28,684 nt of DNA from an uncultured Clostridium sp. (GTDB lineage Bacteria; Bacillota; Clostridia; TANB77; CAG-508): assembly GCA_947568605.1 (NCBI GenBank), contig CANOPV010000001.1, forward strand, positions 1-28,684, in the 5' to 3' direction. Below the pieces are notes generated by a model. The model was not told where the DNA came from. It saw only the letters and a list, made by a program, of their open reading frames with translations, and made no database searches. A program made the translations under genes and the position numbers. This document shows, piece by piece, positions 4,012 to 25,737 of the stretch (positions are counted from its first letter, which is position 1; each line of letters begins with the position of its first letter).

Positions 4012-4085
4012 ACATCTATTTTTTTATGTGAAAGTTTGGGGGTGTTAAGAAAAAACTAAAATATTGCACTAAAAGAATATGGGGG

Positions 4086-4589
4086 TTGGTTTTTATAAAT
4101 AGATTAGAAGAACTTATAAAACTATTTGAAGAATGTTCAAGATCTGAAATTGGAACTGCATTACTAGCATTTGAAGAACACATATGTAAAGGTTTAGATG
4201 TTGGTAAAGAAGAATTAAAAAATTTACAAGAAATATTTGATTATTACGATGAATATTATAGCGATCATTATCCTAGTTTAGCAAATGAAGCATTGCAATC
4301 ATCAGAAAACTTAATATTAGAAAAATTTGGTTATTATACAAAAGACGGATATTTAATTAAGTTTAATATTGGTGCTTCTACCGATGAAGATTATACTTCT
4401 ATTGCTGTAAATGTAATTAACAAACAAACAGGTAATATAGAAAATGATTTTGAATGTATCTATAATAATGAAAAATTAGGATATGAACAAGACAATTATT
4501 TTGATTTGGTTTATAAAAGTTGTAAAGAAACCAGAAAACAATTAGATGAAAAATCTATTGAAGAAATTTTAAAAACGTATAAATTATAA
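4086..4589 (+). CDS. Hypothetical acidic protein (true start possibly ATA 4095)
   Basis: Long ORF. The TTG at 4086 directly abuts the GGGGG SD, while in-frame ATA 4095 is at normal spacing. Confidence 0.7.
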   Translation: MVFINRLEELIKLFEECSRSEIGTALLAFEEHICKGLDVGKEELKNLQEIFDYYDEYYSDHYPSLANEALQSSENLILEKFGYYTKDGYLIKFNIGASTDEDYTSIAVNVINKQTGNIENDFECIYNNEKLGYEQDNYFDLVYKSCKETRKQLDEKSIEEILKTYKL

Positions 4590-4600
4590 GGGGGTTATAA

Positions 4601-4840
4601 ATGGAATCAATACTTAATGATATTTTGCGTTTGATCAATGACGCAACAAACTACCTAAAAATGTTCGTGGCTGGAGCTACGGGCTTTTTTGTTTTAAAAG
4701 ATTGTATCTTTTATATGGTGGCTTCTGAAGATCATCAGAAAGCTGCTTCACTTCGTAAAATCAAAACAACACTTATTGCTGGTGTTTCGGTATTTCTTGT
4801 AGTTCAATTTGTAAACTGGATCTTAACTTACTTTAAGTGA
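4601..4840 (+). CDS. VirB2/TrbC-like pilin, two TM helices
   Basis: 79 aa with two hydrophobic helices separated by a short charged linker (EDHQKAASLRKIKTTL). Located in the transfer operon. Confidence 0.65.
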   Translation: MESILNDILRLINDATNYLKMFVAGATGFFVLKDCIFYMVASEDHQKAASLRKIKTTLIAGVSVFLVVQFVNWILTYFK

Positions 4841-4844
4841 TAAT

Positions 4845-5108
4845 ATGAGTCAAGAAAAATTAGTAAAAGAAATTATAAAAACGTGTAAATATTTTAGAAT
4901 TATGGAATTTGAAATTGAAAACTATTTTGTAGAAAAAAAGATTATTGACGGTTTAGAAGATATTATCTTTGTTGAAAATCTACTAAATATTTTCTACAAA
5001 AAGAAAAATCAAAAATACTATAAGAATCGTCTTAATCAACAAAGATTAAAAAATCTTCTTATAGAATTGGAAAAAATAAGATTAAATTTAGAATTTAAGG
5101 GGGTATAA
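4845..5108 (+). CDS. Hypothetical basic protein (87 aa)
   Basis: ORF tightly packed between pilin and ssb. Confidence 0.65.
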   Translation: MSQEKLVKEIIKTCKYFRIMEFEIENYFVEKKIIDGLEDIIFVENLLNIFYKKKNQKYYKNRLNQQRLKNLLIELEKIRLNLEFKGV

Positions 5109-5109
5109 A

Positions 5110-5448
5110 ATGTTTAATACAATGGCGTTAGTAGGAAGACTTTGTGCAGATCCTACTCTAAAAGAATTAGAAGACAATAAAAAAGTATGCAATATTACTT
5201 TAGCTGTTCCACGTCCATTTAAAAATGCAAATGGCGAATATGAAACAGACTTTTTCCCTATTAGTATATGGAATGGTATTGCTGAAAATACTGCAGAATA
5301 TTGTAAAAAAGGCGATATTTTAGGTATAAAAGGAAGATTACAAGGTAAGGATAATAAAATTTCTATAATTGCCGAAAGAATATCTTTTTTATCATCATCT
5401 AAATCAATAAAAGATGATATAGATCAAGAAAAAAATGTAAAAATGTAA
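5110..5448 (+). CDS. ssb: Single-stranded DNA-binding protein lacking the acidic DDLPF tip
   Basis: MFN...LVGRLCADP..., ITLAVPRPFKNANGEYETDFFPISIWN..AE..AEYCKKGD.LGI.GRLQ. Confidence 0.93.
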   Translation: MFNTMALVGRLCADPTLKELEDNKKVCNITLAVPRPFKNANGEYETDFFPISIWNGIAENTAEYCKKGDILGIKGRLQGKDNKISIIAERISFLSSSKSIKDDIDQEKNVKM

Positions 5449-5461
5449 TTTTTTTCAATTT

Positions 5462-5495
5462 AGGGGCTGTATTTTTTTTGAAAGCGCGTTATTAT
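5462..5495 (+). promoter_or_regulatory. Element-specific bipartite promoter motif, copy 1 (aggggctg-N14-gcgcgttattat)
   Basis: Same architecture and spacing as the copies at 25739 and 26329. Confidence 0.65.
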
Positions 5496-5522
5496 TCATT
5501 TAAAGAAAGGACGTGCTTATGT

Positions 5523-6107
5523 ATGTTAAAGAAAATATTTAAAATTAGTGGTATTATTTTATTAGTCGGTTTTATTAGTGTGTTTGTGAAAGGATATATT
5601 TATCAAGAAGCAAAAACTAATCAAAAAGACAATCTCATAGTTGATTCATCATAAAATGAAAAACAAGAGTTAATAGATGAAGACATAATTACTTCTCTAT
5701 TAGATAATAAGGAAGATCAAGAAGTATTAGAAACAAAACAAGAAGAAATTGCTCCAGAAGTAAAACAAGAAGTTGTTATTCAAAAAGAAAATACTTCTCA
5801 ACCAAAACAGGAAGTACAAACTTCTACTACACCAGAAGTTGTTGTTCCACAACCTAAACAACCTACAGAATGGGAAAAATTAGGTATTAGTGAATATGAT
5901 TATTACAATAGTCCAGAGATTTCTTGGAAAACAGTAGATTTTGATGTAAATAAATTAGGAAGTATGGAAGAAACAAAAAATGCTTGTTATAATGCAGGTG
6001 CAAATTATACAGGGTTAGAAAATTATCGTTTTAGATGTGATGAAACTTATAGTTACTCTGGTAAATTTTTAGGTTATCACATTCAATATATAGAATTAGA
6101 ATCATAA
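5523..6107 (+). pseudogene. Membrane-anchored/secreted protein (194 codons) broken by one in-frame TAA at 5652-5654
   Basis: MLKKIFKISGIILLVGFISVFVKG...IVDSS*NEKQELIDED...PKQPTEWEKLGISEYDYYNSP...YHIQYIELES*. SD gaaagga upstream. The frame is otherwise uninterrupted. Missing from the ORF track. Confidence 0.8.
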
Positions 6108-6128
6108 GGCCGTAAAGGTCTTTTTTTT
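6106..6128 (+). terminator. Intrinsic terminator upstream of the adhesin gene
   Basis: aaggcc-gtaaa-ggtctt followed by T8. Confidence 0.7.
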
Positions 6129-6152
6129 ATGAATTTATAAGGGGGAATTTTA

Positions 6153-8891
6153 ATGAATATAAAAAGAAAAATTTTACTTGCTATACCCATTTTACTGGGT
6201 ATAGTTTTAGGCTTTGCCACTTCTACTTTAGAAGTCAAAGCTGAAACTTATGCAGGACAAGCTATTTGGCCTAGCGAATATATTTCAAATGTATATTTGA
6301 AAAAAGCAAGATCCGACGGTTATGTTGCTTATAAACAAGCAAGATTTATGCGTCGTAGTGAAGATAATGCTTTTGTTTATTGTCTTCAACCATTTGTTGA
6401 TATTGATAATAACCTTATTTATAATGTTGCACGAAGTGATTATGCAACTTATCTTAATATGACACCAGAACAATGGGATAGAATTAGTTTACTTGCCTAT
6501 TATGGATATGGATATGGAAATCATAATACCCCAAAATGGTATGCTGTTACACAAGTATTGATTTGGCGTACTGCAGAGCCAACAAGTACTATTTACTTTA
6601 CTGACGGTTTAAATGGTACTAGAAATGACAATTTATTTATTGATGAAATAAATGAGATTGAAAGTTTAGTTGCTCAACACAATAAAAGGCCTAACTTTAA
6701 TTCAGAATCTATTACACTACCTTTAGGAAAAACTATTACATTAAATGATGTAAATAATGTTTTAAATGGGTATAGAGTGAAAGAACAAAGTAATGCAAGT
6801 GCAAGTATCAATGGTAATTCACTTTCAATTACTGCTACTGGTGTCGGAAATGCTACTATTAAGTTATCAAAGGAAGATTCTTTATATCCTACACCACCAG
6901 TAGTATATTTTAAGGAAGGCACTCAAAATGTATTTAGAGTTGGATCATTTGATCCTTTATATTCTACTATCAATTTAAAAGTAGTTGGTGGTCGTGTTGA
7001 AATCACAAAGAGAGATAAAGACACAGGCGAAGTAATTCCACAGGGATTAGCTTCACTTTCTAATGCCACTTATGGAATATACAATGCCGAAACAAACGAT
7101 CTTGTTGGAACAATAACAACGGATAATAATGCTTTTGCAAGAAGTGATTATCTACCTGATTTAGGTAGATTTTATTTGCAAGAAATTACACCTAGTCAAG
7201 GATATAAATTAGATACTCAAAAGTATTACTTCACAGTAGATGAAAATAATTTACTTGTTAAAGTAGATGTTTACGAAGAAGTAATCACTCGTGAATATGA
7301 AATTACAAAAGTTTATGCTTCTGATAAAACACAAATTATGACACCAGAGATTGGGGTTGAATTTGCTATCTATGATCATAATAATAATTTAGTATCAATA
7401 GAAACTACAGATAAAGACGGTAAGATTTACTTTTCACTTCCTTATGGCGATTACACATTAAGACAACTTACTTCTACAAGTGGGTTTGAAAAAATAGAAG
7501 ATTATCATTTTGAAGTTAGAGATTTAGGTCCTACTATCAATAAGGTTTTCTCAAATGCTGAAATCACATCAAGATTAAAAGTAGTTAAAGTAGATCAAGA
7601 CGGTAATAATATTACACAAGCTGGTATTAAGTTTAAAATTAAAGATTTAGCAACTGGTAAGTATGTATGTCAAACAGTATCTTATCCTACCACTACTACT
7701 TATTGTGAGTTTGAAACTGATAAGGACGGTGTTTTAATTACACCATATCCATTAAATAGTGGTAATTATCAATTAGAAGAAGTAGATCAAGTTGTTTATG
7801 GGTATGTTTGGAATTCTACACCACTTCCATTTACTATAGATGAGAAAGCTGATATTAAGAAAACTGATGAATTTGACGCCATACTTGAAATTCATTTTGA
7901 AAATCAAGAAGTTAAAGGTGTTATTGAATTAAATAAAGTTGGCGAACAAATAGTAATTGAAAATGGTACATATACTTATGAAGAAATAGAACTTCCTAAT
8001 GTAGTATTTGGTTTATATGATGAATCAGGTAATCTTATTAAAACACTTGAAACAAATGATAAAGGTTTTGTAAGATTTGAAGATTTAAAACTTGGAAAGT
8101 ATATTATAAAAGAAATTTCTACTACTGGAAATCATATTTTAGATAATGAAGAATATGAGTTTGTTCTTGAATATAAGGATCAATATACACCTATAATCAA
8201 AAAAACATTTACTCTTAAAAACTATCTAGGAAAAGGAAGTTTAGATTTTCGTAAAACTGATCTAACAAGTGGTAAGGAACTTCCTAATGTAAAAATAGAA
8301 ATATATACTTCTGACGATGAACTTATTTATAGTGGTGTTACTGATGAAAACGGTAAAATCAAAATAGAAAATCTATTTATTGGAAAATTCTATATAATTG
8401 AAACTGAAACAGTAACAGGTTATAAATTATCTGATGAGAAAGTATATTTTGAGATTTTAGAAAATGGCGAAGTTGTAAAAGCTAGTATGACTAATGAAAA
8501 ATTTAAAGGAGATTTGGAATTTACAAAGGTAGATTTATCTACTGGCGATCCACTTCCTAACACATTGATTGAAGTATATAATGCTGAAACAGAAGAACTT
8601 ATCTTTTCTGGTCGTACTGATGAAAACGGTAAAATCATCATTAAAGATTTAGAATATGGTAAGTACTACATTCTTGAAAAAGAAGCACCAGAAAATTATA
8701 TTTTGAATGAAGAAAAAATGTATTTTGAAATTTTAGAGAATGGCGAAGTTGTAAAAGCAACAATGACTAATGAAAAAGTAGAAATGCCTAAAACATTCAA
8801 TACTGATATAACTAGTGTTATTACTATTATGGGTACTGCCCTAGTAGGGTTAGGTCTTCTATTATATGCTAAAAAGAAAAATAATAAATAA
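6153..8891 (+). CDS. Thioester-domain (TED) adhesin with multiple SpaA/Cna-B isopeptide domains and a C-terminal sorting signal (MPKTF-TM-KKK)
   Basis: Signal peptide. VYCLQP (Cys77) and TQVLIW (Gln134) TED motifs. Repeated TD..G...L..G.Y...E...P.GY Cna-B units. Hydrophobic anchor followed by a Lys tail. Confidence 0.88.
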   Translation: MNIKRKILLAIPILLGIVLGFATSTLEVKAETYAGQAIWPSEYISNVYLKKARSDGYVAYKQARFMRRSEDNAFVYCLQPFVDIDNNLIYNVARSDYATYLNMTPEQWDRISLLAYYGYGYGNHNTPKWYAVTQVLIWRTAEPTSTIYFTDGLNGTRNDNLFIDEINEIESLVAQHNKRPNFNSESITLPLGKTITLNDVNNVLNGYRVKEQSNASASINGNSLSITATGVGNATIKLSKEDSLYPTPPVVYFKEGTQNVFRVGSFDPLYSTINLKVVGGRVEITKRDKDTGEVIPQGLASLSNATYGIYNAETNDLVGTITTDNNAFARSDYLPDLGRFYLQEITPSQGYKLDTQKYYFTVDENNLLVKVDVYEEVITREYEITKVYASDKTQIMTPEIGVEFAIYDHNNNLVSIETTDKDGKIYFSLPYGDYTLRQLTSTSGFEKIEDYHFEVRDLGPTINKVFSNAEITSRLKVVKVDQDGNNITQAGIKFKIKDLATGKYVCQTVSYPTTTTYCEFETDKDGVLITPYPLNSGNYQLEEVDQVVYGYVWNSTPLPFTIDEKADIKKTDEFDAILEIHFENQEVKGVIELNKVGEQIVIENGTYTYEEIELPNVVFGLYDESGNLIKTLETNDKGFVRFEDLKLGKYIIKEISTTGNHILDNEEYEFVLEYKDQYTPIIKKTFTLKNYLGKGSLDFRKTDLTSGKELPNVKIEIYTSDDELIYSGVTDENGKIKIENLFIGKFYIIETETVTGYKLSDEKVYFEILENGEVVKASMTNEKFKGDLEFTKVDLSTGDPLPNTLIEVYNAETEELIFSGRTDENGKIIIKDLEYGKYYILEKEAPENYILNEEKMYFEILENGEVVKATMTNEKVEMPKTFNTDITSVITIMGTALVGLGLLLYAKKKNNK
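8230..8780 (+). repeat. Two tandem ~92-aa Cna-B/SpaA repeats with high DNA similarity
   Basis: actgatgaaaacggtaaaatca and tattttga.attttaga.aatggcgaagttgtaaaagc..atgactaatgaaaaa each occur twice. Confidence 0.8.
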
Positions 8892-9480
8892 AATACTTGT
8901 AGTGATTGGATTGTTACTAATTATAGTGGCGATCCTTTCTACTTATTGTTTTCTACATAATAAAGAAATAGATAAACAAGAAACAGAAACTATTATCAAT
9001 GATTTGTTTCCAGATGTTCCTACACCAGAAGTAGAAATACCAGAAGAAACACCTACTATAATTGAAACACCAAAACAGGAATTTGTATTAACTGATAACT
9101 ATTTAGGATATATAGAACTTTCTGGGTATGGAATTAAAAGACTTATCACAACAGGAACATCAAAAAAAGTTTTAGATAAAAATTTAGTTGGTACTTTATC
9201 TGTATCTGCTAATTTAGATGATGAATTTGGTAATGTGATTCTAGCAGGCCATAGCACCAGTAATGTGTTTCAAAAATTACATTATATGAGAGTTGGCGAT
9301 CAAGTAAAGATTGTTACTCATCAAAATACTTACTATTTTACTATTATCAGTAAACATACAATCAATGATAATGATATGTCTTATTTCAATAGTATAAATG
9401 ACAAAAAACAATTAACACTTGTTACTTGTAAAAATAATAGTAAGCAACGACTTATTGTTATATGTGAATTAAGGGGGTAA
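8866..9480 (+). CDS. Sortase (class C/D-like)
   Basis: N-terminal TM. GNVILAGHS (His), LTLVTC (Cys), QRLIV (Arg). Overlaps the adhesin 3' end. Confidence 0.9.
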   Translation: MLKRKIINKILVVIGLLLIIVAILSTYCFLHNKEIDKQETETIINDLFPDVPTPEVEIPEETPTIIETPKQEFVLTDNYLGYIELSGYGIKRLITTGTSKKVLDKNLVGTLSVSANLDDEFGNVILAGHSTSNVFQKLHYMRVGDQVKIVTHQNTYYFTIISKHTINDNDMSYFNSINDKKQLTLVTCKNNSKQRLIVICELRG

Positions 9481-9485
9481 TTAAA

Positions 9486-9716
9486 ATTAAAAGATATAAT
9501 ACAAAGTTTATGTTTTACATAACAAAAAATCTCAAAAAAGATATAAGAAAAAGATCCAAAGAATTAGATATTTCTATGTCTGATTATATAAGGACACTAA
9601 TAAAAAAAGATTTAAAGGAATGTGAAATTGTTTCTAATACTTTGGAAAAAGATAAAAATATTTATGATGTGGATAATTTCAATAAGAAGTTATCAGGTTA
9701 CTATAGGGGGTTATAA
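9486..9716 (+). CDS. Ribbon-helix-helix (CopG-like) DNA-binding protein (ATT 9486 or ATG 9510 start)
   Basis: (KRYNTK)FMFYITKNLKKDIRKRSKELDISMSDYIRTLIKKDL shows a beta-strand plus helix-helix pattern. Confidence 0.65.
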   Translation: MKRYNTKFMFYITKNLKKDIRKRSKELDISMSDYIRTLIKKDLKECEIVSNTLEKDKNIYDVDNFNKKLSGYYRGL

Positions 9717-10379
9717 ATGAAGATATATGAAATAGATTTTAATCTTTATAGTCGTTTATTTAATGAGCGAGAAAACTCTGACTATGGTAAAATGCCTAGT
9801 TATTTAACTGGAAAATTCCTTGTAAAAAATAAAAATGGTAAAGGATATTTTGGTGTTGATAATTCCACTAATGAATGGTGGGAAGAAGAATTTAAAAACA
9901 AATTACAATGTCTTATATGGTTAGTAGATGATGAACTTACAACTGAACAAGTTATTGAGAAATATAATACTAACAAAGATGATTGTAAAGATTATAAAAA
10001 GTATCTTGTTAGTCAAGATGTTTTTTGTGAAAAAAATAATATTTATCATCGTGATTATTTTAAGTTTGATCCAAAGAAAGAATATGATTTTAAAATCAAT
10101 TTAGGTAGTGGTACAAGAGAGTTTTCTTCCACTATTGAAAATGCTTTAGGGTTAGCTTCAAATTATGAAACAGATTTATTATATAAGGATATTCTTATAT
10201 TTTCATCTTTGGGTTTTGAATGGGAAGAAAATTGTCGGCTTATAGAACAATATCTTGGAAAAAATTATGATAGACGTAACTTTAAAGAAAAAGATTTGTA
10301 CGATGACTTCGGTCTTCCATATAGGAAACCAAGCGACGGTTGTTTTAATTTCAAAGATGAAAAAACTATAAAAATGTAA
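9717..10379 (+). CDS. Hypothetical protein (220 aa)
   Basis: Long ORF with the GGGGG SD. No confident family. Confidence 0.75.
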   Translation: MKIYEIDFNLYSRLFNERENSDYGKMPSYLTGKFLVKNKNGKGYFGVDNSTNEWWEEEFKNKLQCLIWLVDDELTTEQVIEKYNTNKDDCKDYKKYLVSQDVFCEKNNIYHRDYFKFDPKKEYDFKINLGSGTREFSSTIENALGLASNYETDLLYKDILIFSSLGFEWEENCRLIEQYLGKNYDRRNFKEKDLYDDFGLPYRKPSDGCFNFKDEKTIKM

Positions 10380-10392
10380 AGGGGGTTAAAAA

Positions 10393-11295
10393 TTGATAGA
10401 ATTAGATAAAGATTTAGTAAGACGTTCTGATAATCAGAGTATGTATAATCGTGGCACTCATATTCAAGATGACGCTAATCACGAATATCAAAGATTTGTT
10501 GAATTATACGGAATCAGAGAACTAAACGAAAAACAATTAGAAATTGTAAATAAAAGAAAAGAACAATTTAAAGAGCTAATTACTGACAGTTATAATGAAT
10601 TATTAAGAGTTAATGCAAATTTTGTGCCTGTCAATGTGGCTGGTCCAGCAAAATATCCTGTTGAAAAAATGTGTAAGGTCCAAGCTAAAATAGATAACAC
10701 ACTTTATACTATTGAAGACAAGATAAAGAGATTCTATAAAAATACTGATGATATGTTAAAAAATGCTTATACAAAAGAAGAAATTATAAGTAAGTATAGA
10801 AATGGATATAATGAGCCAATTAGTAGTGACGATCCACTTGTAAAAGAAAAATTACAAGCAAAATTAGAATTTTTAGAAGAAAATCATCAATCATATTTGA
10901 ATTATAATAAGAAAGCTAGAAAAAATAATGAAGATCCACTTCCACCTTATGTATTAGCGAACTCTAATCAAAATATAAAATCAGTAAAGAATCGTTTAAA
11001 ACAGTTAGAAAAAATGGATAAACTACAAATGAATGACTACTATTTTAATAATGGCGAAGTCCGTTTTGATAAAGAAGATAATCGTGTCAAAATATTCTTT
11101 GATGAAAAACCAAGTCAAGAAGTAATAGAAGAATTAAAAAGTCACGCTTACAGGTGGTCGCCTAAAGGTTTATGTTGGCAAAGGAAACTTACACCAGACG
11201 CTATATATATGACAAAAAGAATGTTTGCTGATATAGGTAGTTTAGAAATTAAATTAGTACACGACTATACCAAAGAAAATAAAATGACAATGTAG
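10393..11295 (+). CDS. Conserved mobile-element protein with a C-terminal domain seen in DUF3560-like/polyvalent proteins
   Basis: VPVNVAGPAKYP, PISSDDPL..EKLQAKL and DNRVKIFFDEKPS.EV.EELKSHAYRWSP...WQRKLT are recognisable ICE/plasmid motifs. The family name is tentative. Confidence 0.55.
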   Translation: MIELDKDLVRRSDNQSMYNRGTHIQDDANHEYQRFVELYGIRELNEKQLEIVNKRKEQFKELITDSYNELLRVNANFVPVNVAGPAKYPVEKMCKVQAKIDNTLYTIEDKIKRFYKNTDDMLKNAYTKEEIISKYRNGYNEPISSDDPLVKEKLQAKLEFLEENHQSYLNYNKKARKNNEDPLPPYVLANSNQNIKSVKNRLKQLEKMDKLQMNDYYFNNGEVRFDKEDNRVKIFFDEKPSQEVIEELKSHAYRWSPKGLCWQRKLTPDAIYMTKRMFADIGSLEIKLVHDYTKENKMTM

Positions 11296-11306
11296 GTGGT
11301 GTTTGT

Positions 11307-12716
11307 ATGATGTTACAGTTATTAACAGTACAACACGAATCTGCAGGTTGGATAACAGACGCGATCCGTTGGGTATTTTGGATGTTGGCAAAAGGTGTAC
11401 TCATCTTACTAGACGGTATGTTTTTAATCATCAATGATATATGGAAATTCAAGTTTTTTGATAATCCGTATGTGAATAAGATATATTCGGCTGCAATCAT
11501 TGTGGCCTGTACTTGGCTAGTACTGAAAGTTATTATTGAAATTATAATGAGATATTTTGTCAATCAAGATGATAATTCTTCCCCCACTAGGGTATTTAGG
11601 GGTATCATTTTTTGTATAGTAATGATGTTTTTAATTCCACCCATATTTAATTGGGGATATGATGTATCATCTAAACTTACACAATATACAATATCAGCTT
11701 CATCTACTGCAGAAACAAGTCCTACTTCTTTTGAAGCTAGTATGTCTTCTATGATACTTACGGCTTTTGCAGATGATAGCAAAATGGACGAATCTGATAA
11801 AAAATACTTTATAGAGAACTGGTGGACGGTTGATTATAATGCTGTTATGAATGACGGCCTTTTTGATTCAGGGGAATATAAATATAGTTTTCATACTTTT
11901 TCCGTTTTCATAGTCGGTTTAGTCGTTGTTGTTCTTTTATTCTTTATAGGAATTCAAGTTGCTAAACGAGTGATAGAACTTGCTTTATATAAGGCAATCG
12001 CACCGTTTGTGTGTACGTCTTTAATATCAAATAGATCACATACATTTGAAGTATGGGCAAAAGGTGTTTTAGGTACATTCCTAGTTACTGCTGTCCAGTA
12101 CCTATGTATTGGAATATTATTTAATGTTTTTGGTACAGTTGTAAAAGGTACTTCTTATGCTATGTCTGTTATACTTATCATCATAGGTGCTTTACTCTTT
12201 ATCATATCATCGCCACAATTAGTGAGTGCTTTGTTAAATGCAAATACTGGAACAATGGCGAATATGAGTGAATTACATAGTATGGCTGCACTAGGTACAA
12301 GTATGATAGCTATGTCAAGATATGGGAAAACAGAAGATAACTCTACTAATTCAAATAATAGTAATGATAATTCTTCTTCTACACCAGACAGTAATTCAAG
12401 TGGTAATGATCCTAATATGACATCAAATTCTTCATCTTCTAATTTGGAATCTGCAAGTCAATCTTCTAATCAAGATAATTCTTCAAATTCTAATTCAGAA
12501 AGTAGTAGTCCTACTATGGATAGTGGAAGTAATGATATACCTACTTATAATGATGATATGTCTAACACCACTTCACTTGCTGATAGAATTGATACATACA
12601 AAGATATGATTGATAATAACAATTATTCATTTAATCAAGAATCTAGTACTTTATATAAAACTACTACAGATTGGGGGAATGTAAATGTATCTAATACCGA
12701 AGAACATAAGGGTTAA
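11307..12716 (+). CDS. VirB6/TrbL-like polytopic membrane protein with Ser/Asn-rich C-terminal tail
   Basis: Multiple TM helices, a KRVIELALYKAIAPFVCTS...FEVW motif, and a low-complexity tail. Confidence 0.85.
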   Translation: MMLQLLTVQHESAGWITDAIRWVFWMLAKGVLILLDGMFLIINDIWKFKFFDNPYVNKIYSAAIIVACTWLVLKVIIEIIMRYFVNQDDNSSPTRVFRGIIFCIVMMFLIPPIFNWGYDVSSKLTQYTISASSTAETSPTSFEASMSSMILTAFADDSKMDESDKKYFIENWWTVDYNAVMNDGLFDSGEYKYSFHTFSVFIVGLVVVVLLFFIGIQVAKRVIELALYKAIAPFVCTSLISNRSHTFEVWAKGVLGTFLVTAVQYLCIGILFNVFGTVVKGTSYAMSVILIIIGALLFIISSPQLVSALLNANTGTMANMSELHSMAALGTSMIAMSRYGKTEDNSTNSNNSNDNSSSTPDSNSSGNDPNMTSNSSSSNLESASQSSNQDNSSNSNSESSSPTMDSGSNDIPTYNDDMSNTTSLADRIDTYKDMIDNNNYSFNQESSTLYKTTTDWGNVNVSNTEEHKG

Positions 12717-12960: not shown

Positions 12961-12969
12961 TTACAAATA

Positions 12970-12999: not shown

Positions 13000-13005
13000 T
13001 ATATT

Positions 13006-16669: not shown

Positions 16670-16692
16670 TTAAACAAGTTACTAATGGAATT

Positions 16693-17672: not shown

Positions 17673-17810
17673 ATGAAATTATTTTTGATTATATTGTTTA
17701 TCAATATTGTAATATTCACATCAGTTTTTTTATTTTGTGCTTGTAAGGTAGCAAGTATAGCTGATGAATCAATAGAAATAGAAAATTATAAAAAGTCAGG
17801 GGGTAAATGA
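17673..17810 (+). CDS. Small hydrophobic membrane peptide (45 aa)
   Basis: MKLFLIILFINIVIFTSVFLFCACKVASIADESIEIENYKKSGGK. SD gaaagga. ATGA overlap with the next ORF. Confidence 0.6.
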   Translation: MKLFLIILFINIVIFTSVFLFCACKVASIADESIEIENYKKSGGK

Positions 17811-17932
17811 TGAAATCTTTTCTATGGAAATGGGAATTGTTTTTTGGAAATTGCTACACTATATTTGATAAAGATAAAAATAAAATTAGAAAAATTTTAA
17901 TCTATCGTAAAAGAATTTATTTGTTAGATTAG
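17807..17932 (+). CDS. Small hypothetical protein (41 aa)
   Basis: GGGGG SD. MMKSFLWKWELFFGNCYTIFDKDKNKIRKILIYRKRIYLLD. Confidence 0.4.
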   Translation: MMKSFLWKWELFFGNCYTIFDKDKNKIRKILIYRKRIYLLD

Positions 17933-17958
17933 ATTTGAATTTAAAGGGGGTTATATAA

Positions 17959-18138
17959 ATGAATGATAAAAAAAGTACATATTTAAAGGTACTCGTAGAT
18001 AATAAAACAGATAATGCTTTTAGAAAAATTTTAGAAATTAAAGGGCTTACAATTCAGGAAGTTTTAGAGAATATGCTAAAAGATTATATCTTTGAAAATC
18101 TTGATTGTATTATGTTGAATAATGGAAGAACAAAATAA
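17959..18138 (+). CDS. RHH auxiliary relaxosome protein (Aux1-like, 59 aa), not in the ORF track
   Basis: MNDKKSTYLKVLVDNKTDNAFRKILEIKGLTIQEVLENMLKDYIFEN is an RHH pattern. GGGGG SD. Overlaps the next gene. Confidence 0.7.
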   Translation: MNDKKSTYLKVLVDNKTDNAFRKILEIKGLTIQEVLENMLKDYIFENLDCIMLNNGRTK

Positions 18139-18562
18139 GAATGGCAATATTATTGCTTTCAGAGTTGATCCATACAAAAAGCAATTACTTCAAGATCAGG
18201 CGTCTAAAAATAATATGAAAATAAGTGAATATTGTAAAAATGTTTTGTTAGATAATTTAGATCAAACAATGCTTTTAGATAGTCAAAAAAAATTAAGAGA
18301 ACTTATTATTGAAACAGTTACGAACGCAAATGAAAAACAATTTTATAAAATATTGACGATGATTAACAAGAACAATATAGGAATTGAAACTATCATATTA
18401 CAAAATGATATGACTTATAAATATTTTGATATTCCACAAACGAGATCAGAACTTAATACTCATCTAGTCAACCACCCTATAACAGAAGTGGCTAGAGAAC
18501 AAGTGCTAAAAAATATTCGTGAATTACGAAGTCAAAAGGACAATGTAGATGAGCAAAAGTAA
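18122..18562 (+). CDS. RHH auxiliary relaxosome protein (Aux2/MobC-like, 146 aa)
   Basis: IIAFRVDPYKKQLLQDQASKNNMKISEYCKNVLL. Immediately upstream of the relaxase. Confidence 0.8.
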   Translation: MEEQNKNGNIIAFRVDPYKKQLLQDQASKNNMKISEYCKNVLLDNLDQTMLLDSQKKLRELIIETVTNANEKQFYKILTMINKNNIGIETIILQNDMTYKYFDIPQTRSELNTHLVNHPITEVAREQVLKNIRELRSQKDNVDEQK

Positions 18563-19979
18563 TATTGTTACGAGAGTTAGATATAAAAAAGATGTGAACT
18601 TTCAAAGGTTGGTCGGTGGCTGGTGTAAGTATGTTTCAAAAGACGGAGCTAATGGAAAATCTTTAAGAGATTTTTCTTCCGTCAATGACTTATACGAAAA
18701 AGAACTTGGGATATATGATGATACTAAAGAATCAGAAGAATGTTATATTTGGGATAAAAACGGCGATGTTTCAAAACAGGAAATTTTAAAAGACTTGCCT
18801 AAAGATAAATCAGGTCGTATGTGGACGTTAGTTTTATCATTTCCTCCAGAATTTGCTCTTGAATCAGGTCTTAAAACAAAACAAGATTATTATTTGATGA
18901 CTAAAGCTATTATGCCAAAATTTATACTAGATAATGATTTGGATCTTACTAATACAAAGTGGTATGCTAGTCTTCATCAGGACACCGACAATCCACATCT
19001 ACACATAAATCTATTTGAAATAGAAGAAACTAGAAAAAAAGATACATTAGAAAAAACTGCGATGAAATATTTAAAAAGTAATATTGCTTCTTATCTTGTA
19101 GATAATACTTCTTTTTATAAAGATCAAGATTATCTACTTTTAGGTCTTGATTATAAGATTAGAAAAAGTAATTACACTAAAGTAGATCAAGAGTTGTTTT
19201 TCTCTAATAAATTTAGAAAGAGTTTAAATAAAGATTTATTAAGTCTTTATAACAAACTTCCTAAAAAAGGTCGTCTTCAATATAATTCAAAAAATTTAGA
19301 TTATTGTAGAAAAGATATTGACAAGATTATAGAAAAAATTTTATATCACGATAAGATAAAATATGATTTTGAAAAGTACTATCACTCTCTGGAATCAATA
19401 GAACGTGAACAAAAAAAGTTATATGGTAACTCTAAAAATAACAAGTATGTGGAAAACAAAATGAAAAGACTTTACTCTAAAATTGGAAATGATATTTTAT
19501 ATAATTTTAAAGTTTATAATTCAAAAGATTTTTTAGAATCTCAAAAAGAATTTTTAGAAATCAACATAATGAATATGGAATTTATTAGTAGAAATACCAA
19601 AAAGAAATCTACCATAGTCAAACACGCAACAGAACTTTATAAACTAGGAAAACTTGCTTCACTCTCTGATAGTGATATAAAAAAGTTATTGGAAAAATGG
19701 ATCAAGAAATCAAAAATCAATTATGATGTTGATTTACTATTTAATGCTGTTTCTAATACTAGAGAAGATATAAATGTTACTGACTTTTATAAAGCATTAT
19801 CACATCTTGGATATACTAAAGAAAGATATGATACTTATAAAGAAAAATCATTTTATAAGAATTTACGATTCAAACAATTTATTAAGAAAGCAAATTATTA
19901 TTTAATGGTTGAAACAAAAAAAGAAGAAGAATTTTTGCTTGAACTTTTAGAAAAGGAACTTCAAGGCAAAGATATTTAA
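18549..19979 (+). CDS. Relaxase, MOB_L family
   Basis: KWYASLHQDTDNPHLHINLFEIEETR matches the MOB_L signature W-x4-H-x2-T-x3-HUH-x4-E-x4-R exactly. Upstream motif MWTLVLSF. Confidence 0.88.
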   Translation: MSKSNIVTRVRYKKDVNFQRLVGGWCKYVSKDGANGKSLRDFSSVNDLYEKELGIYDDTKESEECYIWDKNGDVSKQEILKDLPKDKSGRMWTLVLSFPPEFALESGLKTKQDYYLMTKAIMPKFILDNDLDLTNTKWYASLHQDTDNPHLHINLFEIEETRKKDTLEKTAMKYLKSNIASYLVDNTSFYKDQDYLLLGLDYKIRKSNYTKVDQELFFSNKFRKSLNKDLLSLYNKLPKKGRLQYNSKNLDYCRKDIDKIIEKILYHDKIKYDFEKYYHSLESIEREQKKLYGNSKNNKYVENKMKRLYSKIGNDILYNFKVYNSKDFLESQKEFLEINIMNMEFISRNTKKKSTIVKHATELYKLGKLASLSDSDIKKLLEKWIKKSKINYDVDLLFNAVSNTREDINVTDFYKALSHLGYTKERYDTYKEKSFYKNLRFKQFIKKANYYLMVETKKEEEFLLELLEKELQGKDI

Positions 19980-19992
19980 GGGGGTTATAACT

Positions 19993-21837
19993 ATAAAGAA
20001 ATATTTTAATTACATACTAGTAGTTATTATTTCTTTATTGTTTTTTACTTTCATCATTACTAATTTTGTTGTATGTATGAAAAGTAATTTTGAATTAAAA
20101 TTTATATATAATCTTTTAGATATAATTAGTATTGTTTCAAAAGATAGAAATATTTTAGTAGGCATTTCTTTAATAGAATGTCTTTTTCTTTTGGCCTTAT
20201 TATATTATAAATATAGTTTTAAAATTAAAAACTCTAACAGTACAAATGGTGTACCTAAAAGAATCAATAGTAATGAATTTGGTAGTAGTACCTTTGCTAC
20301 TATTAAGGAAGTAAGAAAAAACTTTACTACTTGGCGATTTAATAAGAATAATAAGTCTGGTGGTATGGTTGTTGCAATAGATGATAATAATTACTATGTA
20401 GATACTAGCTCTAATCATACATTGATTATTGGTAATACTGGATCTGGTAAAACAGTTTCAGTAATTGATCCACTCATATTTAATTTAGCTGACGCTGGCG
20501 AATCAATGATTATCAATGATGTCAAAGGCGAACTTTACAAAACTACTTATGATTATTTAAAAAAGAAAGATTATGATATTAAGATTATCAATTTAAGAAA
20601 TACAAGTAATAGTGATTTTTGGAATCCACTCACGATCGCTTATGAGTATTTTAAAGAGAATAATTTTGAAAAAGAGATTGAAACAATCAATGATTTATCA
20701 GGTGCAATATGTGAAGATGTTACTAGTCGTGATAAGTACTGGCAAGAGTCTTCATCTTCTGTTTTAAGTGCATTATGTCTTGCTCTTTTAGAAGACGCAA
20801 AAAGTGAAAGTCAAATACACTTTCATTCTATCTATAACTTACTTGTGGAACACGGTGCTAAAAAGTATGGCGATCAGAATTCACTTGATAAGTATTTTAG
20901 TGATCGTCCATTTGGAAGTACTGCAAAAAATCTTTACTCTACAGGAAACTTTGCTCGTGGGGAAACAAGGGCTACTATTTTTTCCATTCTAGCGTCAAAA
21001 TTAAGAGTTTTTGGAGATACTGGTGTTAGTTATATGACTAGTAAAACTTCATTCAATATAAGGGACATAGGTAAGAAAAAAACTGCTATCTTCCTTATCA
21101 TTCCAGATGAAAAGATTTCTAGGCATTTCATAGGTAGCTTATTTATCAATCAAGTCTATCAGGTTTTAGTAGAAGAAGCTCAAAAAGAAAATTCTGGTAC
21201 ACTTCCTATTAGGGTAAATTTCATACTAGATGAATTTTCAAATATGGTAAAGATTGCTGAATTTTCAAAAAAACTTACAGTAGCAAGATCCAGAAATGTT
21301 AGATTTTATTTAGTAATTCAAGATTTTAATCAGTTGCAAGAAAATTATAAAGAAATGGCTGGTACTATTAAGTCTAACACTAGTAATTGGGTTTATCTCT
21401 CTACAAACGATTATAATACCGCTCACGAGTTATCAAATAGAATTGGAAAATATACGATTGCCACTACTAGAACATCATCTTCTAATAGATATGGAAAAGT
21501 TGATTTCAATCTGTCATCTGACACATCACTTACTGGTCGTGATTTAATTACTGCAGATGAGCTTATTAACTTTAAAGTTGGCGAAGCTATCATATTAAGA
21601 ACTAGAATGTCGCCTATAAAGACAAATTTAAAGCAAATAAGTGATTATCCATTTAGATATAAAGTTACTGATACAATAGAAGTCAAACAAGATGAATTCC
21701 ATAAACTAGAACTTTTTGATCTTGATACATTTAGAATTGAACAAGAATTATTTTCCAATAAGGAACAAGTACAAGATGTACCTATCAAAAAAGCAAGTCC
21801 AACCAGAAAGAGAAAACCTAAAAATGACTCTGAATAA
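19993..21837 (+). CDS. virD4: VirD4/TraG coupling protein (ORF track starts at TTG 20038; inferred start ATA 19993)
   Basis: N-terminal TMs, IGNTGSGKT Walker A, INDVKGEL, DPFW-like DFWNP, FILDEF, RSRN..F.LVIQD..QL. Confidence 0.93.
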   Translation: MKKYFNYILVVIISLLFFTFIITNFVVCMKSNFELKFIYNLLDIISIVSKDRNILVGISLIECLFLLALLYYKYSFKIKNSNSTNGVPKRINSNEFGSSTFATIKEVRKNFTTWRFNKNNKSGGMVVAIDDNNYYVDTSSNHTLIIGNTGSGKTVSVIDPLIFNLADAGESMIINDVKGELYKTTYDYLKKKDYDIKIINLRNTSNSDFWNPLTIAYEYFKENNFEKEIETINDLSGAICEDVTSRDKYWQESSSSVLSALCLALLEDAKSESQIHFHSIYNLLVEHGAKKYGDQNSLDKYFSDRPFGSTAKNLYSTGNFARGETRATIFSILASKLRVFGDTGVSYMTSKTSFNIRDIGKKKTAIFLIIPDEKISRHFIGSLFINQVYQVLVEEAQKENSGTLPIRVNFILDEFSNMVKIAEFSKKLTVARSRNVRFYLVIQDFNQLQENYKEMAGTIKSNTSNWVYLSTNDYNTAHELSNRIGKYTIATTRTSSSNRYGKVDFNLSSDTSLTGRDLITADELINFKVGEAIILRTRMSPIKTNLKQISDYPFRYKVTDTIEVKQDEFHKLELFDLDTFRIEQELFSNKEQVQDVPIKKASPTRKRKPKNDSE

Positions 21838-22960
21838 TCAAACTATGACTTTATTTAATTATGAATATCCATTTATTAAACTAGATAAGAATAATGTTAA
21901 GGTTGGTACTTTCTTTTCTGGTATTGGAAGTCCAGAAATGGCTTTTCATAGATTAAAAGAAAATGGTATTATAAATAATTATGAATCTGTATTTTTTTGT
22001 GAAGTGGATAAACACGCGATTAAAAGTTATTGTGCGATCCATAATAAAACACCAGATGACAATCTTGGGGATATTACTAAAATCAATGGTGCTGATATTC
22101 CATATTGTGATATTTGGATCGGTGGCTTTCCCTGTCAAGATATAAGTATGGCTGGTGTTCGTCGTGGCTTTGATTTTGGAAGTCGTACTCGTTCTTCTCT
22201 TGGGTGGAAAATGATACAATTTTTAAGAGAAGTAAAAGATCCACCAAAAGTAGTTATTTTTGAAAATGTGGCTGCAATTACTCATTCAAAATTTAGAATA
22301 ACATTGAACTTATTTAAAAATGATTTAGAAGAATTAGGATATTCACTTTATGATGATGTTTTATGTGCTTTAGATTATGGTACACCACAAAATAGAGAAA
22401 GATATTTTTTAGTTGCAATCAAGGGAAAATACTTATATCAATTTCCACAAAAAATGAAATTGAAGTTAAGACTTAAAGATTTACTAGAAAAAGATATTGA
22501 TCCTAATCTTATTTTATCTGAAAAAGTTCCATTTGATTTACAAAGTTTTGTTGCTAATAAAGATTATACAAAAGATTGTAAGTTAGTTTGTAAGAATCTG
22601 AAAGATAAAAGAAGAAAATATATAATAGATTTATATAGATTTATTGACGGTAAAAATAAGTGTGGACGTGATACATCTAGTAAATATAATCAAACTGCAA
22701 GGTTATGGTCTATAAATGGATATTGTCCTACACTAACGGCGAATTCTACAGAAGATACAAGTAAAATGATTATCTATCGTGATAATTGTTTTTTTGTGAA
22801 AAAAATTAGTCCTTTAGAAAGCTGGCGTTTTATGGGGTTTAGTGATGAAGATTTTTATAAAGCAAAAGACATCGGTACTTCTAATCGTCAATTATTCAAA
22901 CAAGCTGGAAATAGTATTGCTACAAATGTGATTTATCATATTTTAAAAAAATTATTTTAA
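21824..22960 (+). CDS. dcm: Orphan C5-cytosine DNA methyltransferase (likely start ATG 21824)
   Basis: Motif I FFSGIGS, IV GFPCQD, VI FENV, VIII QNRER, TRD TL motif (CPTLTA), X QAGNSI. Confidence 0.93.
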   Translation: MTLNNQTMTLFNYEYPFIKLDKNNVKVGTFFSGIGSPEMAFHRLKENGIINNYESVFFCEVDKHAIKSYCAIHNKTPDDNLGDITKINGADIPYCDIWIGGFPCQDISMAGVRRGFDFGSRTRSSLGWKMIQFLREVKDPPKVVIFENVAAITHSKFRITLNLFKNDLEELGYSLYDDVLCALDYGTPQNRERYFLVAIKGKYLYQFPQKMKLKLRLKDLLEKDIDPNLILSEKVPFDLQSFVANKDYTKDCKLVCKNLKDKRRKYIIDLYRFIDGKNKCGRDTSSKYNQTARLWSINGYCPTLTANSTEDTSKMIIYRDNCFFVKKISPLESWRFMGFSDEDFYKAKDIGTSNRQLFKQAGNSIATNVIYHILKKLF

Positions 22961-22986
22961 TATCATAGATATATATTAGAAAAAAA

Positions 22987-22995
22987 TGTTATAAT
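22987..22995 (+). promoter_or_regulatory. Extended -10 promoter (TGTTATAAT) for the lipoprotein pair
   Basis: Exact TGnTATAAT ~40 nt upstream of 23038. Confidence 0.55.
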
Positions 22996-23037
22996 TGATT
23001 TACAAATAGATATACTATTTGAAAGTGAGATGATATA

Positions 23038-23592
23038 GTGAAAAAAGTATTGTTATTATGTTTAATAAGTATTTGTATTTTATTAACTGGTTGTTCGGAA
23101 GAAAAGGATTCATTTGAGCATTATGATTTAAAAGATAAAGATTTGAATATTTATACATATTTTAGTGATAACGGCAAAGAAGTTTATGCTTTAGCAGATA
23201 TAACGCCTAGTTCTTATGAATCGTTTTTAACGGGGTTCTTCTATAAAATTGATGACAACGATTATATTTTATTAGAAACATTAGAATCATCCCAACAAGA
23301 TGCTTATAAAAAAGACTATATGTATCAATTTTATGATAATAAACTTTATGGTGTTGGAAATGGAAATTCCCCTATGATATTTGAAATAGAGTTAAAAAGA
23401 AAAGAAAGTAAAATTAAAGAGTTAGAATTTAAAATAGATGAAAAAACTAATCCTTTTTTAATAAGTAGTATTAGAAATATTGATAAAGACTTAATTACTA
23501 TTTCTGGGGATATTTTTATAAGTGAACATAGTGAGTATAGATACTTTGAATGTTCTTTAAAAAACTATGAATGCTCTATAAAGGATAAATAA
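23038..23592 (+). CDS. Lipoprotein of unknown function
   Basis: MKK plus hydrophobic stretch and lipobox LLTG-C. Confidence 0.8.
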   Translation: MKKVLLLCLISICILLTGCSEEKDSFEHYDLKDKDLNIYTYFSDNGKEVYALADITPSSYESFLTGFFYKIDDNDYILLETLESSQQDAYKKDYMYQFYDNKLYGVGNGNSPMIFEIELKRKESKIKELEFKIDEKTNPFLISSIRNIDKDLITISGDIFISEHSEYRYFECSLKNYECSIKDK

Positions 23593-23599
23593 TAAATTT

Positions 23600-24004
23600 A
23601 TGAAAAAAATTACATATTTTGTTTTGATAACTATATCATTTTTAATATTGATATGTATTATTTATGTTATATTAGGTTTTACTGGTAATTTATATACAAA
23701 AAAAGAATCATATCTTTCATCAAATAAAGAATATAAAATTGTTATAAAAGGTAATGGTGCAAAATGGCCGTTCGGTAGTGAAGATATAAAGGTGTATGCT
23801 TATAAAAATAGTTTTACTGGCACTTTTAGTAAAGCAATTTATAAAACAAAAATATTTAATGATGGCAAAATTTTAAATGATAGTAATTTTAATATTGAAT
23901 GGAATGATAATATTGCATACCTTTCTTTAAATGGCGAAGAACAAAAAGATGAAATTTTAAAAATAGTTTTTGAAGATAAGGTTACTATTGAAAAAATGGA
24001 ATAA
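23600..24004 (+). CDS. Single-TM membrane protein of unknown function
   Basis: MKK plus one TM helix, then a soluble domain with WPFG, NDG and GEEQ motifs. Confidence 0.75.
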   Translation: MKKITYFVLITISFLILICIIYVILGFTGNLYTKKESYLSSNKEYKIVIKGNGAKWPFGSEDIKVYAYKNSFTGTFSKAIYKTKIFNDGKILNDSNFNIEWNDNIAYLSLNGEEQKDEILKIVFEDKVTIEKME

Positions 24005-24130
24005 TAAATGGAATTAGATTATCAAACAAAAAGATAATCTTTTCTTTTGGCCTATTTTATTCTAGTAAAATCGTGATATAATGTAATTGATATGTAGGAT
24101 CCTAGAATAATATATTCGGTCATCTGTTGA

Positions 24131-24159
24131 TTGACTTTTGTAATGTATTACTGTATGAT
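24131..24159 (+). promoter_or_regulatory. Sigma-A promoter for 24204
   Basis: TTGACT, 17 bp, TATGAT. A second TGaTATAAT lies at 24074-24082. Confidence 0.55.
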
Positions 24160-24203
24160 AATACGTACTCTATCAAAACTTTAAGTATTAAGGAGTAGTA
24201 TGT

Positions 24204-24725
24204 ATGAAAAACGAACAGTATTTAGAACTTCGGAATCAGGTTTCAGAAATGAATAAGATTAACGATGAAATAAGTCTTATAAACTGGAATCGTGAAGACG
24301 GTCCCAAATTTTCATCTGTAGAAGAAATGAAAGAATTTGAACATAGATTAAAAAATAATGAATTTGATTATTTTTTTGAAGATAAAGATAATGCTGATAT
24401 ACTAGATACAAAAGATGTTATTGTTGAAAGTTTTTCTCATACACTAGAAGACATATCATTCTATATTTATACATACCAAAACAAAAGTAACTATAACTAT
24501 GTTACTTATCTATCATTAACTAATACAAAAGATAATGATATAATTGACAAATTATGTGGTAATACTACTTCTGATAAAGAATCCGCACATAATTATTTTG
24601 AAACATTAAAACAAGCAATAACAAATAATAATATAAATGATATTTTGGAAAACTTAACTTTAGGAGCACAAAAAACTATAGTATCATTAAAAAATAAATT
24701 ATCTAAACTAACTAGTGAAAGCTAG
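24204..24725 (+). CDS. Hypothetical protein (173 aa)
   Basis: Canonical SD aaggag. No motif recognised. Confidence 0.7.
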   Translation: MKNEQYLELRNQVSEMNKINDEISLINWNREDGPKFSSVEEMKEFEHRLKNNEFDYFFEDKDNADILDTKDVIVESFSHTLEDISFYIYTYQNKSNYNYVTYLSLTNTKDNDIIDKLCGNTTSDKESAHNYFETLKQAITNNNINDILENLTLGAQKTIVSLKNKLSKLTSES

Positions 24726-24753
24726 TTTTTTTGTTTATAAAGGGGGTTAAAAT

Positions 24754-25737
24754 ATAGATATAGGAAAATTAGTGAATGATCTAAAAGATTATTCTAAAAA
24801 TAATGAATTTGATAAGATTAAAGATATAACATTAAAATTTGAAAAAGATTTTCTTGATAATTGTAAAAGTGAATATGATTTTAAAAGTTTGATTGATGAT
24901 TTATCTTTATATAGTAATTATACAGTTTTAAATACATTATTGATAAAATATCAATATCCAGATTTTCTATCACTTGGAACAAAACAATCATATTTAGATC
25001 AAGGTGTTCAATTACTAGAAAATGCTACACCTATTGAAATACTAACACCAATCAGTGATGAATATGTATCTATAAAAGAAAATGATAAAGTGATAATTAA
25101 AAATATGAAAGATCTGACAAAACAAGAATTAAAAAGATATTTTGATAAAGAGAATAAAGATGTTGTGTTTCATCATAAAGATTTTAAAGGTCTTAATTCT
25201 ACTATACTCTTTGATGTAAAAGATACAACAATGAAGAAAATTGATTATGATACTGGGACGCTTCCGGCTCTTTTTTATTCTTCTTATGATGAAATTTACA
25301 ATAGTTTTATAAAGGCACTTTATGCTGACGGTTTTAAAGTAAAATATGTTAATATGAATAATAAATACTCTTTTGATAAGGATAGTAAAACAATTAGTTT
25401 AAAACAAGGTTTGAACAAAAGAACACACTTAATGATAGTGCTTGATATTTATACAAATAATATAGCTTCTAATGAAATGGAAAAAGATATGTTAGATATG
25501 GTTATTTCAAGAAGAATTGGAATAGATAAAGAAGATGTTTCTTTTGATAAGTTTCAATCTTGGTATAAGAATCAAGATATAAAAACAGTAGATAATCTAC
25601 TAAAAGTGATTGTTAATAAAGGAAGAAAATTTGCAAATAATTTTAATAAGTTTTATGAGATAGAATTTCAAAAGAATGAAAGCTTATATCCAGATGACGA
25701 GAAAGGTTTATATGATGACTTTTCTCTTTTTTCATAA
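24754..25737 (+). CDS. ArdC/LtrC-like ssDNA-binding protein with a degenerate metallopeptidase region (start ATA 24754 or GTG 24772)
   Basis: LSLYSNYTVLNTLLIKYQYPD...G..LLENATPIEILTP resembles the ArdC N-domain (YSFNN.LLI..Q.P...G..V..G...I.IL.P). No HExxH is present downstream. Confidence 0.55.
   Translation: MDIGKLVNDLKDYSKNNEFDKIKDITLKFEKDFLDNCKSEYDFKSLIDDLSLYSNYTVLNTLLIKYQYPDFLSLGTKQSYLDQGVQLLENATPIEILTPISDEYVSIKENDKVIIKNMKDLTKQELKRYFDKENKDVVFHHKDFKGLNSTILFDVKDTTMKKIDYDTGTLPALFYSSYDEIYNSFIKALYADGFKVKYVNMNNKYSFDKDSKTISLKQGLNKRTHLMIVLDIYTNNIASNEMEKDMLDMVISRRIGIDKEDVSFDKFQSWYKNQDIKTVDNLLKVIVNKGRKFANNFNKFYEIEFQKNESLYPDDEKGLYDDFSLFS

Follow-up and report, generated by a model that had tools for sequence, protein, structure and literature searches.

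Probable translation from ATA and ATT codons behind GGGGG Shine-Dalgarno sequences in a conjugative element of an uncultured Clostridium

How are genes translated when a strong Shine-Dalgarno (SD) sequence is followed, at the usual distance and in frame, by nothing but ATA or ATT? This question is raised by contig CANOPV010000001.1 of an uncultured Clostridium sp. (GenBank assembly GCA_947568605.1), a stretch of 28,684 nt referred to here as the window, which is the entire longest contig of a fragmented metagenome-assembled genome (MAG; 240 contigs, 1.25 Mb, 25.7% GC, 68% complete). The 28.7-kb contig bears an integrative conjugative element (ICE) of the Firmicutes type, whose gene content comprises a SpaA/thioester adhesin, a sortase, TrbL-like and VirB4-like proteins, a MobL relaxase, a VirD4 coupling protein and a large serine recombinase. 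The same or near-identical DNA was identified in many mouse-gut metagenomes of independent studies (public runs, DNA contigs). Four genes of this element are concerned, all on the plus strand: a gene for a 164-aa protein (site 1), a gene for a small, putative ribbon-helix-helix (RHH) DNA-binding protein (site 2), the VirD4 gene (site 3) and a gene whose product is predicted to have an ArdC-like fold (site 4). Judged from the DNA and its relatives, these genes are most probably translated from the near-cognate codons AUA (4095, 19993 and 24754) and AUU (9486), such initiation appearing very likely for three of them and likely for the fourth, at 4095. An alternative genetic code was considered and ruled out: long open reading frames (ORFs) end at all three stop codons, TAA, TAG and TGA, and thus the standard code applies.

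GGGGG ribosome-binding sites of the element

The plus strand of the element contains 18 distinct GGGGG sites and not a single GGAGG. Fourteen of the 18 are followed, 6-9 nt on and in frame with a long ORF, by ATG (12 sites) or TTG (two sites), and the remaining four lead to an in-frame ATA or ATT only, namely ATA 4095 (spacing 9), ATT 9486 (spacing 8), ATA 19993 (spacing 8) and ATA 24754 (spacing 7). In their layout, all 18 coding-strand sites act like ribosome-binding sites. Nearly all of them share the context (T/A)AAGGGGGT, which can form eight pairs with the canonical 16S tail, one of them G-U; this tail is present in two hosts of sister elements. The SD sequence of the element (GGGGG) differs from that of the host (GGAGG), as 266 canonical starts are GGAGG-led vs 33 that are GGGGG-led, and 14 of these 33 are located on this contig. 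The element-specific GGGGG dialect was found to be kept in all relatives that were fetched.

For 9486, 19993 and 24754, there is no canonical start codon at a functional spacing in the same frame, and at 4095 the only one is a TTG at spacing 0. Internal SD-like sites of the same genome were used to estimate how often an in-frame ATA or ATT occurs at spacing 6-9 by chance, which yielded approximately 0.15 per site and a joint chance of approximately 5e-4 for all four sites. The four-site ATA/ATT pattern is not a chance pattern. The positions and codons that the first-pass annotation of this DNA had given for the four sites were all found to be correct on re-reading, and its spacing of 6-9 nt between GGGGG and ATG or TTG holds at the 14 canonical sites. 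It had also described three of the four SD sequences as intergenic, and this is the case; the remaining one, at 9473, coincides with the final codons of the sortase.

Conservation of the four start sites

The coupling protein gene (19993..21837) codes for a 614-aa VirD4-type protein of the CD1115 family, which matches Pfam PF02534 (E = 5e-58), Pfam TraG-D_C and NCBIfam NF045973 (358 bits vs a cut-off of 250) and contains a P-loop. Its proposed ATA start (19993..19995) is located 8 nt past the GGGGG of an extended SD, AAGGGGGT (19978..19985), whose AA is part of the relaxase stop codon TAA (19977-19979). Relatives of VirD4 were collected from eight loci of reference genomes and eight loci of metagenome contigs, with N-terminal identities of 58-100%. 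ATA-AAG-AAA is present 7-8 nt past GGGGG in 11 of 11 distinct lineages, which differ in the spacer and in the codons directly 5' of the ATA (ACT, AAA, AAT, ATT). Only 34% of the Ile codons of the element are ATA, and nearby Ile columns of VirD4 mix ATA and ATT. One locus (L015) exhibits an in-frame TAA two codons 5' of the ATA, and therefore no earlier start of VirD4 is possible there. The rival start codon, TTG 20038, is TTA in 3 of 10 lineages. Hydropathy analysis revealed two transmembrane (TM) segments, at residues ~4-28 and ~52-72, for the protein that begins at ATA 19993, and a protein beginning at TTG 20038 retains just 12 residues of the first hydrophobic segment. The called N-terminus is truncated in 15 of the 16 database homologs that were aligned, and these calls are spread over 12 different positions, a raggedness to be expected of a family that has no canonical start codon. 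The NF045973 model aligns to residues 133-552, which represent the soluble domain only. Compared with that family, the ATPase domain is the same, and the N-terminal membrane anchor lies here behind an ATA codon and is missing from most database entries.

The gene at site 4 (24754..25737) codes for a 327-aa protein for which no family match in Pfam or NCBIfam and no PDB sequence match was found. An AlphaFold2 model based on the homolog alignment reached a mean pLDDT of 87.6 (89-95 over residues 1-40) and is helical from residue 3 onward; the first two helices (pLDDT 89-95) are conserved. A Foldseek search with this model identified R388 ArdC (6I89 and 6SNA) as the only significant matches (E = 7e-6, probability 1.0), with an overall TM-score of only 0.34-0.44. 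A similar fold is suggested by this match and both proteins are encoded by conjugative elements, but they share only ~10% identity and the Pfam ArdC domain is not found in the protein described here. Directly 5' of the intergenic extended SD, AAGGGGGT (24740..24747), a terminator-like hairpin followed by a T-run can be read from the sequence (24710..24732), and the proposed ATA start (24754..24756) is located 7 nt past the GGGGG. This hairpin is preserved in homologs via compensatory changes. Scanning sites 1 and 4 for consensus promoters and terminators returned nothing useful, and the terminator scan did not call the hairpin, as it has too few G-C pairs.

Eleven ArdC-like lineages, down to 45% identity, exhibit a common layout of hairpin, T-run, AAGGGGGT, a spacer of 7-9 nt and then the start codon, which is ATA in nine lineages, ATT in two and ATG in none. 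Several of them carry an in-frame stop codon two codons 5' of the ATA or ATT. In most homologs, the first ATG, GTG or TTG of the gene is found 33-82 codons downstream, within conserved sequence, and the closest canonical codon in the window, GTG 24772, is TTA in distant homologs (46% identity) and TTG in L006. A single transition would create ATG at the VirD4 and ArdC-like starts, yet none is found at the ATA position family-wide.

At site 2, a 76-aa putative RHH protein is encoded (9486..9716), whose proposed ATT start (9486..9488) is located 8 nt past the GGGGG of an extended SD, AAGGGGGT (9471..9478). This SD lies inside the sortase gene at its 3' end, the sortase stop codon being TAA 9478-9480. 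The protein shows a weak NikA-like/ORF56-like match, with both scores below the family cut-offs (Pfam PF21983, E = 0.0015, residues 5-39, 19.1 bits vs 27; NCBIfam NF041793, E = 3e-4, 20.8 bits vs 50). Forty-one of 91 database homologs start canonically exactly at the codon aligned to ATT 9486 (M[KRQ][RK]Y..). In approximately 36 close relatives, the internal Met at window position 9510 was taken as the start, while 12 homologs were called from assorted later codons and two from two codons upstream. The Met at 9510 is Ile in most RHH homologs. At the DNA level, the start codon is ATG in L014 and L022 (54% identity), where the internal Met is likewise Ile, and ATT in L012, L013 and L023.

Site 1 precedes the gene of the 164-aa protein (4095..4589), for which searches of Pfam, NCBIfam and PDB sequences revealed no significant family and which was compared via the alignment of its homologs. 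The intergenic SD, GGGGGT (4081..4086), is kept in L009, L010, L011, L023, L025 and L026, and the proposed ATA start (4095..4097) is situated 9 nt past GGGGG; an ATA is present at 8-9 nt in 8 of 8 lineages, down to 39% identity. The rival start codon is TTG 4086 at spacing 0. Most homologs retain the 9-nt spacer TTGGTTTTT together with the TTG that directly adjoins the SD, and gene callers use that TTG. In L025, the codon aligned to TTG 4086 is TGG, and the next codon is a TTG (spacing 3). The spacer of L026 lacks one T, which places the TTG out of frame. The latter locus weighs less here because its site-1 gene contains a nonsense codon. ATG starts of the host show spacings in the range of 4-10; among 194 unambiguous ones behind GGAGG, a spacing of 0-2 was observed in none and a spacing of 3 in one, while spacings of 7, 8 and 9 were observed in 41, 22 and 16, respectively. 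It is likely, at a lower grade than for the other three sites, that translation at site 1 starts at ATA rather than at TTG.

The region upstream of this gene (4036-4094) also contains a second GGGGG box (TTTGGGGGTG..) approximately 40 nt 5' of the site-1 SD, and TTGGTTTTT is located between the boxes and the ATA. Both the second box and TTGGTTTTT are conserved in homologs that are only 39-55% identical in their coding sequence (L011, L025 and L026).

The alignment of homologs, which had been proposed as a check of the four starts, revealed that the ATA or ATT codons and the N-terminal extensions are kept for VirD4, the ArdC-like protein and site 1, and that the RHH gene has ATT in a subclade and a canonical start (Met) at the same codon elsewhere. 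The first-pass annotation had stated that a start at ATA 19993 completes the first TM segment of VirD4, and hydropathy indeed shows both segments only with this start. Its ranking of the sites has to be revised: 24754, which was considered to be the weakest case, is instead among the best supported, as GTG 24772 is not maintained in homologs, and the weakest site is 4095, with its SD-abutting TTG that is conserved in most homologs.

Element-specific attenuation and competing explanations

Initiation at ATA and ATT could be a habit of the host or a property of the element. Outside the element, at most four credible ATA/ATT candidates were found vs approximately 400 SD-led canonical starts (~1% at most), as compared to 4 of 18 within it (Fisher p = 1.5e-4, with rough denominators). 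Candidates C22 and C84 are credible; a third, C104, is also GGGGG-led and appears to belong to another conjugative element. Other host candidates were discarded: C11 and C19 have a downstream canonical ATG with its own SD, C36 probably has a downstream canonical ATG too, aligned to the usual N-terminus of cytidine deaminase, and C131 is probably internal to a gene. Neither infC, the gene of initiation factor 3 (IF3), nor the 3' end of the 16S rRNA was found in the window's own, 68%-complete genome. Among the hosts of sister elements, four provided an infC gene, which begins with ATA in three of them and with ATT/ATC in the fourth, 5-9 nt behind a GGAGG that is part of GGAGGTG. This is the classical layout for autoregulation by IF3, which presupposes discrimination against such codons, and IF3 discrimination consequently looks intact. 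A sample of 399 genomes of the class contained only distant coupling proteins and no close relatives. Most of these start canonically; L042, L049 and perhaps L041 are without a canonical start, and one of them has an SD-led ATT.

These data favour the view that ATA and ATT starts are a property of particular mobile-element genes and not of the host translation apparatus. Two readings had been offered at first, a systematic translational tuning of transfer genes and a relaxed IF3 discrimination in the host lineage. The former gains support from the conservation of the ATA/ATT codons and N-terminal extensions across related elements. The latter does not agree with the share of ATA/ATT candidates outside the element or with the start codons of infC in the sister hosts. 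Attenuation encoded by the element itself is favoured over relaxed fidelity because ATA/ATT starts are rare in the host and because of the infC layout in the sister hosts.

From the observed codons, their spacing, and the conservation of both and of the N-terminal extensions, we infer that initiation takes place at ATA and ATT and that it serves to reduce yield, as an attenuation that is possibly linked to IF3. In the corresponding model, each near-cognate codon would be presented 7-9 nt 3' of a uniform extended SD, (U/A)AAGGGGGU. This strong SD would retain the 30S subunit, so that fMet-tRNA could read AUA or AUU with a third-position mismatch, and IF3 would reject most of these near-cognate complexes, leaving an output that is a fraction of the AUG level. 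The element would thereby hold the amounts of the membrane coupling ATPase VirD4, the ArdC-like protein, the small RHH DNA-binding protein and the 164-aa protein low. An extension of this model, which we regard as rather unlikely, is that this fixed subset of genes has deliberately been placed in the IF3-sensitive class of the host's infC, that output and transfer competence increase when there is little free IF3 per ribosome, and that the absence of ATG reflects selection against strong expression. If this were true, conjugation would be coupled to the translational state of the host. More generally, the arrangement suggests that the initiation step is where conjugative elements of low-GC gut bacteria set the stoichiometry of their proteins, or that they limit toxic proteins in this way.

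It is improbable that the four genes start at their nearest canonical codons (TTG 4086, ATG 9510, TTG 20038 and GTG 24772) and that GGGGG is incidental or acts at a distance. All four codons are in frame, an AGGA is located 6 nt 5' of GTG 24772, TTG 4086 is conserved as described above, and public databases list the proteins in such truncated forms. However, GTG 24772 gives way to TTA or TTG in homologs, the codon at 9510 specifies Ile in most homologs, which begin eight codons earlier, TTG 20038 is not constant either and its use would halve the first TM segment, the spacing of TTG 4086 is seen in 0 of 194 host genes, and the called N-termini of VirD4 homologs are scattered. It is still less probable that the host lineage has relaxed start fidelity, owing to an unusual initiator tRNA or to an IF3 that discriminates weakly, and that ATA and ATT are ordinary start codons throughout its genome. 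The hosts are small-genome, low-GC, Bacilli-like MAGs, and a few host genes outside the element, such as C22 and C84, may indeed start at ATT or ATA, but the difference in frequency between element and host speaks against this explanation, as do the sister-host infC genes, whose ATA/ATT start and extended SD are sensible only if IF3 discriminates, and the canonical starts of most distant coupling protein genes across the class. In addition, no tRNA gene was found in the element.

Only a slim chance is also given to the possibility that the proteins encoded at 9486 and 19993 are mainly made by termination-reinitiation after the sortase and the relaxase, in which case a near-cognate codon would be tolerated as the ribosome is already on the mRNA. 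At both sites, the upstream stop codon overlaps or abuts the SD, and L053 exhibits a classic stop-start overlap at the RHH gene. In contrast, 4095 and 24754 are intergenic, are situated behind hairpins and cannot be coupled. Coupled and uncoupled sites use the same SD and spacing. Coupling would, moreover, still require a start codon, and it would refine rather than replace near-cognate initiation. Finally, it is hardly credible that the start codons have decayed and that the element is degenerating, with these genes as its silent remnants. This copy does carry an in-frame TAA in another gene (5652-5654), L026 has the nonsense codon mentioned for its site-1 gene, and in L024 (8715-8740) an AGG, likewise preceded by GGGGGG at 7 nt, takes the place of the RHH start codon that is ATG in its closest homologs. 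Yet at least 10 diverged lineages share the same ATA or ATT, their ORFs being intact and the substitutions within the extensions conservative, an essential coupling protein would be dead family-wide, and the element is found in many independent mouse-gut metagenomes.

Several observations weigh against near-cognate initiation as proposed here. The compared lineages are kin, and counts of them overstate their independence. The conserved TTG 4086 together with TTGGTTTTT would also fit the coding of M-V-F, which renders site 1 ambiguous. Near sites 2 and 3, a second ATT or ATA, which the first-pass annotation had not mentioned, is present at spacing 2 (9480 and 19987, respectively), and the exact codon used could differ from the one proposed. 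A single VirD4 lineage (L003 and kin) has an ATG two codons 5' of the ATA, at spacing 2, and L053 has an ATG two codons 5' of the RHH start, forming the overlap TAATG. The AGG of L024 may be a dead start or a rarer near-cognate start, and some copies may simply be defective. Moreover, the properties of the host were derived from hosts of sister elements, the window's own genome offering neither infC nor the 16S 3' end.

Known near-cognate starts and further features of the locus

Near-cognate start codons are known from chromosomal genes. In E. coli, infC starts at AUU. An AUU start has also been described for E. coli pcnB (Binns and Masters 2002, cited within PMC13009471). In S. aureus, Ribo-Ret and reporter analyses identified conserved near-cognate starts with extended SDs for infC (AUA), ccpN (AUA, also in B. 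subtilis), cvfC1 (AUU) and citZ (AUA), which yield ~10% of the AUG level and up to 30% in the case of ccpN in rich medium (PMC13009471). The AUA start of S. aureus infC was shown to be real and is thought to permit autoregulation by IF3 (PMC13009471). The four sites of the element share with these S. aureus genes an AUH codon, a normal spacing, an extended SD, conservation among orthologs and the interpretation as attenuation. They differ from them in that the genes are mobile and not chromosomal, that four of them occur within 28 kb, that the SD is AAGGGGGU and not of the GGAGG type, that GGGGG is rarely used by the host, and that the VirD4 and ArdC-like starts are never ATG family-wide; the element genes are, furthermore, known here from their sequence. 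As with E. coli infC and pcnB, which are chromosomal genes of a Gram-negative bacterium, a weak and IF3-sensitive start would limit expression, and the link to IF3 is suggested by analogy with the sister-host infC genes, which use the same layout.

All sequence-level features of the infC/ccpN/cvfC1 class are present at the four sites, i.e., the SD and its spacing, the absence of a rival codon at a functional spacing, conservation and an N-terminus that appears to be part of the functional protein. The latter is indicated by the first TM segment of VirD4, the helices of the ArdC-like protein and, for the RHH protein, the N-terminal residues conserved in 41 homologs and the weak NikA-like match that begins at residue 5. 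In the literature that was searched, no report of such starts was found for coupling proteins or ICEs. The case adds to a known mechanism of near-cognate initiation, and its setting in a mobile element is what differs. It also has consequences for annotation: approximately half of the RHH homologs and most ArdC-like homologs (on fetched contigs) are truncated, as are 15 of 16 VirD4 homologs, because gene callers accept only ATG, GTG and TTG. Membrane topologies, domain models and structure predictions inherit the error of these truncated starts.

Further SD-led ATA or ATT starts were observed in relatives of the element at small genes near the recombinase (L015 12366-12385, L003 16133 and L002 16164). 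The window carries ATG at one of them (26194), which means that, at some genes, the strength of the start codon switches from one lineage to another. A gene of a membrane-anchored protein of ~194 aa (5523-6107) is broken in the window by one in-frame TAA (5652-5654). Its homologs, of 204 aa in L023 and 195 aa in L024, show no interruption there, and the window copy consequently contains either a nonsense mutation or an assembly error. The ORF 3' of VirD4 is a DNA methylase in relatives. With TTG 21716 as its start, the ORF shares 120 nt with VirD4 (21716-21837) and is ~36 aa longer than its homologs (377-378 aa), and the true start is probably located near the VirD4 stop codon.

In the 25.7% GC host genome (G000), a GC-rich, intergenic nested-hairpin repeat was detected with 29 hits (C16, C18, C29, C32, C44, C52, C71, C76, C93 and others; loci L054-L056). 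One of its hairpins is GGCCCCTTT..AAGGGGGC, followed by GTCATCGAAGATGAC and then GGGGGTTC, and the repeat is often paired with a cousin of the GGAGG/CCTCC type. The repeat has no match in Rfam and resembles a REP- or MITE-like element, and it explains many of the SD-like motifs of the host that are not followed by a gene.

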